Shown piece by piece: positions 2,723 through 31,799 of a stretch of DNA of 64,000 bases. Source of the DNA: Escherichia coli. GTDB taxonomy: Bacteria; Pseudomonadota; Gammaproteobacteria; Enterobacterales; Enterobacteriaceae. The stretch lies in assembly GCF_011045215.1 (NCBI RefSeq), contig NZ_CP049201.1; one strand, given 5' to 3'. The notes beneath the pieces are model-generated. The model saw only the letters and a list, made by a program, of their open reading frames with translations, was not told where the DNA came from and ran no database searches. The position numbers were made by a program, and so were the translations under genes. Position 1 is the stretch's first letter. Each line of letters begins with the position of its first letter.

Positions 2723-2815
2723 AAAAAAAACCGGATGCGAGGCATCCGGTTGAAATAGGGGTAAACAGACATTCAGAAATGAATGACGGTAATAAATAAA
2801 GTTAATGATGATAGC
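2723..2815 (-). ncRNA. micF: MicF antisense sRNA (represses ompF mRNA)
   Basis: Minus strand reads GCTATCATCATTAACTTTATTTATTACCGTCATTCATTTCTGAATGTCTGTTTACCCCTATTTCAACCGGATGCCTCGCATCCGGTTTTTTTT, the MicF sequence with its intrinsic terminator; divergent from ompC. Confidence 0.9.
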
Positions 2816-2960
2816 GGGAGTTATTCTAGTTGCGAGTGAAGGTTTTGTTTTGACATTCAGTGCTGTCAAATACTTAAGAATAAGTTATTGATTTTAACCT
2901 TGAATTATTATTGCTTGATGTTAGGTGCTTATTTCGCCATTCCGCAATAATCTTAAAAAG

Positions 2961-9156: not shown

Positions 9157-10815
<1,659 letters not shown>

Positions 10816-11195
10816 TGATGTGCCACATCCGGCATGGTATGCCGGATGTGGCGTATGCTGATAAGACGCGCCAGCGTCGCATCAGGCAACCGGCTTGGGT
10901 GTTAGATGTCGGATGCGGCATAACCGACTTATTCGACCTACGGGGTGGAGCACTTCACAGCGGTGTAGGCCTGATAAGACGCGTCAGCGTCGCATCAGGC
11001 AACCGGCTCGGACGTTGGATGTCGGATGCGGCGTAACCGCCTTATCCGACCTACGGGGTGGAGCACTTCACAGCGGTGTAGGCCTGATAACACGCGTCAG
11101 CGTCGCATCAGGCAACCGGCTCGGGCGTTAGATGTCGGATGCGGCGTGACCGCTTTATCCAACCTACGGGGTGCCGCACTTCACGGCAGTTTAGC
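10816..11195. repeat. REP/BIME cluster, about three tandem ~116-bp units
   Basis: Repeated GCCGGATGCGGCG…CTTATCCGACCTACGGGG…CTGATAAGACGCG…CATCAGGCA palindromic units; the overlapping small ORFs in the track are repeat artefacts. Confidence 0.9.
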
Positions 11196-11679
11196 GAACT
11201 ACCGCGTTGTCAATTTTCTCTTCCGCCTTCCAGACGCGGTACTTCACATCTACATTGTCTGGCGTATACACCACGATCGGCAGCTTGCTGTTGTAACGCA
11301 GCATTCCAGTATCGCCCAGATACGCGGTGACAAATTTCTTCTCTTTCTTGCCATCCGGGCAGGCCATCATCGTGGAAACCGGCGAGCTAACTTTATCAAA
11401 GACATAATAATCATAGCCCCAGCCTTCCAGCGTTTTGCTTTCCAGCTTCCCGCCGAGACGATGCAAATTGCAATCGCCTTCCAGCGTCTGACCGATTAAC
11501 AGTTCTACTTTCAGGGTAGATTCATCTTCTTGCGGGGTTAACTGAATCACCTGACGCTTCATGCCTTTTTCAGCTTGTGGATAAGGCGCGATTTTTTCCA
11601 GTGGCTGGACGCTCTCTGCCGCCCAGGCGGAAGTGGTGGCGAAAGCGGCAAACAATACTGCAGGTAGAATGGTCTTCAT
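11191..11679 (-). CDS. eco: ecotin (periplasmic serine protease inhibitor)
   Basis: 162-aa [46 protein letters not shown]… matches ecotin. Confidence 0.95.
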
Positions 11680-27920: not shown

Positions 27921-27997
27921 TGGTCGGCACGAGAGGATTTGAACCTCCGACCCCCGACACCCCATGACGGTGCGCTACCAGGCTGCGCTACGTGCCG
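27921..27997 (-). tRNA. proL: tRNA-Pro (anticodon GGG)
   Basis: Minus strand reads CGGCACGTAGCGCAGCCTGGTAGCGCACCGTCATGGGGTGTCGGGGGTCGGAGGTTCAAATCCTCTCGTGCCGACCA, a cloverleaf with encoded CCA. Confidence 0.93.

Positions 27998-31406: not shown

Positions 31407-31799
<393 letters not shown>

Follow-up and report, generated by a model that had tools for sequence, protein, structure and literature searches.

The spacer between mqo and eco in the analysed window, a 64,000-nucleotide stretch of Escherichia coli DNA, is, judged by its sequence, a three-unit allele of an already known element, the BIME-2 cluster designated REP161 in strain K-12 by EcoCyc. It is identified as such because K-12 has a leader and like units at the orthologous site. 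The explanation that best accounts jointly for the data, and that we consider very probable, is that of a three-unit REP161 BIME-2 whose units act as modular gyrase sites, whose leader serves as a shared transcript end, and whose copy number changes by whole units, with neither IHF binding of the BIME-1 type nor a protein product.

The mqo and eco genes are convergent, and are so annotated by RefSeq under the matches in thousands of E. coli genomes, practically all of the 5,426 complete ones. Their spacer is 375 bp long (10816-11190), with a G+C content of 60%. Every base of it can be assigned to two initial nucleotides, a palindrome (the "leader"), or one of three units (Table 1), the final 23-nt linker reaching the base that precedes the eco stop codon. 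Tandem Repeats Finder (TRF) delineates an array at 10858-11184, with a period of 113, 2.9 copies, 92% matches, and a score of 556, and detects no other tandem repeat scoring >=80 within the 64-kb window. A repeat search places the in-register copies at 10858-10970, 10971-11083, and 11084-11196 (100, 93, and 85% versus the reference copy, respectively). The pairwise identities of the units are 105/113, 100/113, and 96/113; they differ from each other at 8-17 of 113 positions, and each harbors diagnostic substitutions. The RNA of the spacer is far more stable than its shuffles on both strands (z = -4.6 on the plus strand and -4.8 on the minus strand). A promoter/terminator scan of the spacer reveals neither a sigma-70-like promoter nor a terminator of the hairpin-plus-T-tract type.

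A preliminary description of this DNA had placed a REP/BIME array in the convergent mqo/eco gap, which is borne out by TRF, by the REP cores, and by the flanking ORFs. The unit of ~116 bp given there is corrected by TRF to a period of 113 bp, and the units, described as "near-identical", share only 85-93% pairwise identity. Repeat units had also been said to fill the whole spacer: three 113-bp units are indeed present, but the first 42 nt belong to a different, single-copy palindrome.

Table 1. Features of the mqo/eco spacer and of its flanking genes (window coordinates; free energies in kcal/mol).
Feature	Positions	Strand	Remarks
mqo (malate:quinone oxidoreductase) CDS	9169..10815	+	ORF of 548 aa; stop TAA 10813-10815; RefSeq annotation in E. 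coli genomes
Leader palindrome	10818..10856		Perfect 14-bp arms 10822-10835 and 10839-10852, 100% complementary; loop GGT
Unit 1 Y REP	10853..10887	+	Degenerate foot GTATG vs GTAGG, 1-nt deletion; GCCTGATGCGACGC with 0 mismatches, - strand at 10887; hairpin -15.8/-15.9
Unit 1 inner 20-nt linker	10888..10907		AACCGGCTTGGGTGTTAGAT
Unit 1 Z2 REP	10908..10941	-	Inverted on + strand, CCTAC end; Z core with 2 mismatches; degraded stem, -10.1/-6.9
Unit 1/2 junction, outer 23-nt linker	10942..10964		GGGGTGGAGCACTTCACAGCGGT
Unit 2 Y REP	10965..11000	+	Canonical 5' GTAGG foot; core with 0 mismatches; -21.9/-21.4
Rfam naRNA4 (RF02564) match	10968..11051	-	Z2-linker-Y of unit 2, eco sense; 75.3 bits vs gathering 59.5; model 1-77/77
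Unit 2 inner linker	11001..11020		Variant CGGACGTTGGAT, unit-specific marker
Unit 2 Z2 REP	11021..11054	-	Inverted on + strand, CTAC 11051-11054; GTCGGATGCGGCG with 0 mismatches to variant core; -19.1/-20.2
Unit 2/3 junction, outer 23-nt linker	11055..11077		
Unit 3 Y REP	11078..11113	+	GTAGG foot; AAG>AAC weakens stem; 79% complementary; -17.1/-18.5
Unit 3 inner linker	11114..11133		
Unit 3 Z2 REP	11134..11167	-	Inverted on + strand, CTAC 11164-11167; -11.0/-15.1
Terminal outer linker variant	11168..11190		GGGGTGCCGCACTTCACGGCAGT; small 5-6-bp hairpin, -7.7/-8.5; abuts eco stop codon
eco (ecotin) CDS	11191..11679	-	ORF of 162 aa; stop TAA = complement of 11191-11193; RefSeq annotation

Read on the plus strand, each unit is composed of a Y REP, a 20-nt inner linker (AACCGGCTCGGGCGTTAGAT), an inverted Z2 REP, and a 23-nt outer linker (GGGGTGGAGCACTTCACAGCGGT). 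The Y core GCCTGATGCGACGC is found without mismatch in all three units. The six palindromes have 12-14-bp arms with 79-86% complementarity, bubble included, as expected for REPs, which are imperfect palindromes of 30-40 nt with an internal bubble of mismatches, and all six fold on both strands into hairpins with an internal loop. A GTAG tetranucleotide located 5' of the palindrome foot is conserved in REPs and reads CTAC on an inverted copy (Ton-Hoang 2012). It is observed here as GTAGG at 10965 and 11078 and as CCTAC ends at 10941, 11054, and 11167, the exception being the Y REP of unit 1 (GTATG). Unit 2 is the most canonical, with hairpins of roughly -20 to -22 kcal/mol each, and its Z-type copy agrees with the published consensus GCCGGATGCGGCGTGAACGCCTTATCCGGCCTACGA at 30 of 36 positions by count, including one compensated stem pair. 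Substitutions have weakened the Z2 REP of unit 1 and both REPs of unit 3. The inner linker variant of unit 2 (CGGACGTTGGAT), a unit-specific marker, occurs in 1,671 genomes, once in each. The terminal variant (GGGGTGCCGCACTTCACGGCAGT) is found in 10 of 12 fetched loci, the terminal linker being divergent in the 1-unit alleles of AVS0285 and CFT073.

The pairing within the REPs was evaluated across 10 alleles, which together supply 17 distinct Y/Z2 cores. In a pair-count test, 93.4% of the stem cells are paired, versus 27-44% for slid controls. Covariation among these cores is not above that of shuffles (172/500), and a two-sided change is limited to one pair of the Z2 stem, where C-G is replaced by U-A. 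The palindromes are real; selection for pairing is not demonstrated by these within-locus data.

Two classes of BIMEs are distinguished. A BIME-1 is present once and joins a z1 and a y REP through a long L linker, which often contains an IHF site. A BIME-2 is instead made of z2 and y REPs separated by a short linker and repeated in tandem, in numbers that differ between loci and strains (Ton-Hoang 2012); Nunvar 2010 agrees with this division. In the mqo/eco spacer, palindrome and core searches reveal that Y REPs alternate with Z-type REPs across the units. The copies are in tandem, three here and other numbers at the same locus in other strains, and the linkers are short (20 nt for the inner and 23 nt for the outer one), without any match to the IHF consensus at <=1 mismatch. 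The Z-type REPs are tentatively assigned to Z2, as opposed to Z1, through orthology to the published K-12 BIME-2 and because the naRNA4 model, built on Y/Z2 units, is matched over its full length.

In the gyrase data of Sutormin 2019, the K-12 version of this array appears in Table DS3 as "BIMEs2 2308874-2309528, 654 bp, eco>-<mqo". The cleavage sites recorded for this K-12 array amount to 11 with ciprofloxacin (Cfx), 7 with rifampicin plus ciprofloxacin (RifCfx), 2 with microcin B17 (Micro), and 5 with oxolinic acid (Oxo), and the accompanying remark, "Espeli, Boccard 1997: 6 cuts", corresponds to one cut per unit. In the same study, Y REPs are preferred for cutting, and BIME-2 signals are kept or raised under rifampicin, BIME-2 behaving as strong gyrase sites independent of transcription. 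Gyrase had already been named as a ligand in the preliminary description, and this now holds for the class at large and for the K-12 allele of the eco/mqo locus itself. Extrapolating from the six-unit K-12 allele, about three gyrase cleavage clusters would be predicted in the three-unit allele. The number of functional gyrase or RNA modules may even be lower than three, because the stems of units 1 and 3 are weakened.

The leader palindrome begins 2 nt past the mqo stop codon. On the mqo-sense RNA, its stem is lengthened to 18 bp by two G.U pairs (-29.2 kcal/mol), while on the eco-sense RNA it remains 14 bp long (-27.8 kcal/mol). Unlike the REPs, the leader is a single-copy element, each of 4,083 genomes having it at just one place. 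The K-12 leader folds at -34.0 and -33.4 kcal/mol on the two strands. Table 16 of Harris 2026 reports, under serial number 365, a 46-nt bidirectional-terminator overlap at K-12 positions 2305063-2305108, assigned to eco:mqo, convergent, and to REP161. For that entry, the table gives a stem of 18 bp, a loop of 3 nt, and an energy of -33.4 kcal/mol, the flanks providing 2 A and 2 U only (Harris 2026). It is identified as the leader palindrome because refolding the K-12 leader yields exactly the value of -33.4 of entry 365. The list of 306 terminators behind that table is presumably the one of Ju, Li & Liu 2019.

The combination of a G+C-rich hairpin and a U-tract that defines intrinsic terminators is found on neither strand of the spacer, the leader hairpin being followed by GCUGAUAAG on the plus strand and by CAUCAUUAC on the minus strand. 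In K-12, the ends of the convergent transcripts overlap at the leader palindrome, outside the REP units (Harris 2026). Because the overlap corresponds to the leader and not to the REP units, the array is probably an eco 3'UTR, and the mqo mRNA probably ends at the leader hairpin, as transposed from the K-12 mapping. The stabilisation of upstream mRNA that had been attributed to the array thus needs refinement, the mapped K-12 mqo and eco ends overlapping at the leader rather than at the REP units. REPs located within ~15 nt of a stop codon are said to provoke ribosome stalling and trans-translation. A lead along this line is that the leader hairpin, 2 nt past the mqo stop, may lower the yield of Mqo.

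Taken together, these elements suggest the following mechanism. Each Y/Z2 module would constitute a strong, transcription-independent site of gyrase binding and cleavage, as reported for the six-unit K-12 allele and as expected by extension for the three-unit one. The array would be located where the positive supercoils generated by the convergent transcription of mqo and eco are expected to meet. The leader palindrome would be the end point common to both transcripts, according to the K-12 end mapping. The mqo mRNA would then terminate at a hairpin of great stability, located 2 nt beyond its stop codon, and the eco transcripts would cross the whole array, acquiring a structured 3'UTR of 375 nt in the naRNA4 orientation. 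By analogy with REP325 and with general work on REPs, the REP hairpins in this eco 3'UTR may attenuate transcription and block 3' exonucleases. Finally, the comparison of alleles shows that the number of units shifts in whole 113-bp steps, through slippage or unequal recombination between units.

The variation in unit number was documented on 5,426 complete E. coli genomes, the spacer length being obtained in each genome from a query limited to the flanks, with the array removed. Among 59 evenly spaced genomes, 36 (~61%) have 1 unit, 1 has 3, 5 have 5, 14 have 6, and 3 have 7. The unit counts known at the locus are 1, 3, 4, 5, 6, and 7, and the spacer lengths of 149, 375, 601, 714, and 829 bp all differ from each other by whole units. 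This comparison with other E. coli genomes confirms that copy number varies between strains, as the preliminary description had proposed. Of the 5,426 genomes, 1,985 (37%) contain the 37-nt junction between units, at a median of 4 places and a maximum of 11, the latter suggesting that arrays of 12 or more units may exist.

Several alleles illustrate how these counts are reached. Strains DH1 and MG1655, with 5 and 6 units, respectively, differ by one of two identical terminal units, which means that the array either changed in the course of the K-12 pedigree or collapsed in an assembly. The three-unit layout of the window is shared by A30 and GF3-3, two independent complete genomes, and the cores of units 2 and 3 of A30 are identical to those of the window. 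QEC11-421 harbors a different three-unit allele, built of K-12 units 1, 2, and 6; three-unit alleles therefore arose more than once. The 5-unit allele of CX12 is a mosaic of window-type units. An allele interrupted by IS621 also occurs at this locus.

The strongest alternative is that the extra units are a neutral expansion of selfish DNA, by slippage or through the RAYT (TnpA-REP), the leader and one Y/Z2 pair being sufficient; we regard it as possible, if somewhat unlikely. The distribution of alleles speaks for it, since the 1-unit allele is the commonest in the sample: the extra units are dispensable, as ~61% of the sampled genomes have a single unit, and they may be neutral. About 63% of the genomes lack the junction, the units show decay in the weakened Z2 of unit 1 and Y of unit 3, alleles are mosaic, and three-unit arrays originated independently in QEC11-421 and in the window and A30. 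Two features required by TnpA-REP, the GTAG foot and a bubble in the stem, have also been retained by the REPs. Against neutrality, K-12 gyrase cuts once per unit (6/6), so that the number of units has at least a biochemical consequence, and REPs between convergent genes correlate with a higher expression of both genes.

A further idea is that of a heritable dial set by 1 to 7 or more units: with every further module, the eco 3'UTR would gain a Z2/Y hairpin pair and the region between the two convergent genes a strong gyrase site, with perhaps naRNA-like two-hairpin RNAs arising from this 3'UTR. This broader proposal is speculative and, in our estimate, unlikely. If it were true, ecotin and Mqo expression and local supercoiling would differ between strains without any change in coding sequences or promoters.

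The naRNA aspect deserves separate treatment. With cmscan, every unit yields one naRNA4 match, the minus (eco-sense) strand scoring best, and the matches of unit 3 (56.2 bits) and unit 1 (45.3 bits) score below the gathering threshold of 59.5. This RNA family was originally defined on REP325, a (Y-l-Z2)x6 cluster located between yjdM and yjdN, and the function first proposed for it was HU-mediated nucleoid condensation. A nucleoid role of naRNA4 is contradicted by a recent preprint from a group including the original senior author (Harris 2026). Deletion or overexpression of REP325 leaves the nucleoid volume unaltered, REP-REP contacts are absent from Hi-C maps, and no stable HU-cruciform-naRNA4 ternary complex is found. 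REP325 is shown instead to terminate transcription, in part through Rho, and to stabilise the mRNA upstream of it. REP-terminated mRNAs exhibit no genome-wide difference in half-life, and the correlation of REPs between convergent genes with a higher expression of both genes comes from the same work (Harris 2026).

It could be argued that the array is a cluster of naRNA4-like RNAs, in which read-through from eco would yield ~80-nt two-hairpin RNAs that bind HU, bridge cruciforms, and condense the nucleoid. RF02564 does match every unit, best in the eco sense and above threshold in unit 2 (75.3 vs 59.5 bits), the architecture resembles that of REP325, where naRNAs were defined, and the K-12 end mapping implies that the array is transcribed in that orientation. 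However, Harris 2026 provides no nucleoid-volume, Hi-C, or ternary-complex support, units 1 and 3 remain under the Rfam gathering score, and the linkers are of 20/23 nt, vs 13/17 nt in REP325. We therefore consider this reading decidedly unlikely.

It is very unlikely that the count of three units is itself an assembly artefact, the repeat having collapsed or expanded. DH1 (5 units) and MG1655 (6 units) do differ by one of two identical units, perhaps through such a collapse, and the exact sequence of the window is found in 0 of the 5,426 complete genomes, the best match being 99.0%. However, with 8-17 differences per 113 positions between units, spanning reads would be unique, the same layout recurs in A30 and GF3-3, the former with identical unit 2 and 3 cores, and QEC11-421 testifies to the existence of another three-unit allele. 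The risk of misassembly raised in the preliminary description is thus conceivable in general, as DH1 and MG1655 illustrate, and improbable here, where three distinguishable units are present in a layout shared with A30 and GF3-3.

A BIME-1/RIP-type element binding IHF, as the same description implied, appears highly improbable. The REPs do alternate in orientation, as in BIME-1. Nevertheless, the array lacks the hallmarks of BIME-1 (RIP/RIB): its copies are in tandem, and the IHF consensus WATCAANNNNTTR, searched with <=1 mismatch, is absent from both strands of the spacer, whose 60% G+C is unfavourable to an A/T-rich IHF site. The K-12 ortholog is listed as a BIME-2, and, among the rows of Table DS3 that we consulted, nearly all BIME-1 have 0 gyrase sites (one has 1) vs 11 for this locus. 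The IHF site belongs to the L linker of BIME-1, and with the negative consensus scan the IHF-binding reading was dropped.

Four ORFs are open on the plus strand (10815-11036, 10895-11131, 11026-11499, and 11139-11330), and none has a Pfam match at threshold, the sub-threshold hits having E = 0.04 and 0.19. That the first three encode real small proteins is next to impossible, even if they are open over 73-157 codons: the annotations of the 12 fetched loci (PGAP for 11, curated for NC_000913.3) place no CDS in the spacer, the ORFs vanish with the 149-bp, 1-unit allele carried by most strains, their peptides are similar only because 113 = 3n+2 reopens the same unit-relative frame in successive units, and the longest continues antisense through eco. 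They had been taken for artefacts from the outset, and rightly so.

The three-unit REP161 BIME-2 retained here belongs to a class of elements known since the 1980s-90s, and its K-12 locus already possesses published gyrase-cleavage and transcript-end data; a literature text search found no paper treating mqo/ecotin jointly with BIME. For annotation, the spacer can be labelled as a BIME-2/REP161 allele, the plus-strand ORFs suppressed, and the IHF attribution dropped. The leader palindrome deserves recognition as a separate and functionally important part, being the end point of the convergent transcripts in K-12. Furthermore, the natural allelic series at this locus (1, 3, 4, 5, 6, and 7 units, and the IS621-interrupted allele) is well suited to probing the recent proposal that REPs serve as tunable 3'UTR dials, as well as the idea of BIME-2 units as modular gyrase sites.

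Among known systems, REP161 of K-12 (MG1655 2304394-2305107) shares with the window the flanking genes, the leader, the 113-bp unit, and the terminal linker variant. The K-12 allele, in MG1655 and J53, comprises 6 units in a 714-bp spacer, compared with 3 units in 375 bp in the window. Its leader stem is a perfect 18 bp, whereas an AC>GT change leaves the window with a weaker stem of 14 perfect pairs and 2 G.U pairs, the latter in the mqo-sense RNA only. Unit-specific substitutions differ as well, and units 1 (weak Z2 stem) and 3 (AAG>AAC in Y) of the window have no identical K-12 counterpart. BIME-1/RIP/RIB elements resemble the array in being located at gene 3' ends and in combining Y and Z-type REPs inverted relative to each other. 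They are, however, single-copy elements with z1 and an L linker carrying an IHF site, in contrast to a tandem array devoid of the IHF consensus, whose K-12 ortholog is classed as BIME-2.

REP325 of K-12 (naRNA1-6) is likewise an alternating tandem Z2/Y cluster, transcribed within a 3'UTR. In the MG1655 extract, its period is 100 bp, composed of Z2, 13 nt, Y, and 17 nt, compared with 113 bp and 20- and 23-nt linkers in the window. REP325 is located between tandem genes and the eco/mqo array between convergent ones, and one compensated pair distinguishes their Z2 stems (GCCGG/CCGGC vs GTCGG/CCGAC). Finally, the sucB-sucC and tldD-yhdP elements are also BIME-2 clusters with multiple in vivo gyrase cleavage sites. 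These belong to other loci and are shorter than the eco/mqo array; that of sucB-sucC, with 166 bp and 6 Cfx sites, lies between co-oriented genes, whereas eco and mqo are convergent.

The exact sequence of window 10600-11400 is absent from all complete RefSeq E. coli genomes in the collection searched. Its best match is found in strain A30, from a baboon, with 99.0% identity over 801 bp. The array-free flanks, for their part, are 99.5% identical in GF3-3 and in O157:H7 strains, the latter possessing a single unit only.

The number of units is not constant even within the K-12 pedigree: DH1 (L006:1001-1601, its mqo/eco locus) harbors five units and MG1655/J53 (loci L004/L001) six. The difference between DH1 and MG1655 amounts to one of two identical terminal units, and thus reflects either a real slippage event in the laboratory lineage or the collapse of a repeat during assembly. 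In the same sample of flank-query rows, PSJ-07 and TUM22764 (a strain labelled 'laboratory developed') display a spacer of the same length as that of DH1, and their arrays probably also comprise five units. The 37-mer spanning the unit-to-unit junction (window 11050-11086) reaches a maximum of 11 matches in one genome of the collection, which implies that some strains would carry at least 12 units in tandem, amounting to about 1.4 kb of array.

At its eco side, the array of the window is followed by TTAGCG (plus strand, window 11191-11196), which corresponds to the stop codon and the last codon of eco. In the unit register, this hexamer lies where a fourth Y REP would have its GTAGGC foot, and it shares three of six bases with that foot. 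Since the end of eco occupies this foot position, the array abuts the end of the gene, which it may have overwritten or by which it may have been truncated, as judged from this register.

An insertion sequence has also been observed at this locus. IS621, an IS110-family element mobilized by a bridge-RNA recombinase, interrupts the mqo/eco array of E. coli 2017-02-2CC (NZ_AP027764.1); the insertion point, GTAG|GC, falls within the Y REP located at the junction of units 3 and 4. REPs have been documented in the literature as IS621 targets. With the array-free flank query, the mqo and eco flanks are not joined in 49 of the 5,421 genomes; these may harbor further IS621-type insertions or very long arrays.

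Beyond the array, the 64-kb window holds three Rfam matches at gathering level, a set that fits the ompC-micF ... nap region in a chromosome of the E. coli type. Three further REP-like palindromes are dispersed in the window, none of them in tandem arrangement.

Coordinates of the IS621-interrupted allele and of the other RNA and REP features (window positions unless a locus is named)
Feature	Position	Strand	Remarks
IS621-interrupted allele	L009:2233-4000 (E. coli 2017-02-2CC, NZ_AP027764.1)		4-unit allele
MicF sRNA	2723-2816	-	Rfam, 116.8 bits, at gathering level
tRNA	27924-27997	-	Rfam, at gathering level
L25 ribosomal-protein leader	31713-31738	-	Rfam, at gathering level
Near-consensus Z-type REP, GCCAGATGCGGCGTGAACGCCTTATCTGGCC	~31288	+	REP-like palindrome, isolated
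REP-like palindrome, isolated	~57170	-	not in tandem
REP-like palindrome, isolated	~60361	-	not in tandem

Only 2 nt separate the mqo stop codon from the 5' arm of the leader palindrome, and a terminating ribosome must therefore melt this arm. The K-12 leader possesses AC where the window has GT (10820-10821). In the mqo-sense RNA, the GT variant keeps the 18-bp stem through two G.U pairs, whereas in the eco-sense RNA the stem is reduced to 14 bp; owing to this predicted strand asymmetry, eco transcripts that read through in antisense to mqo could be terminated less efficiently.
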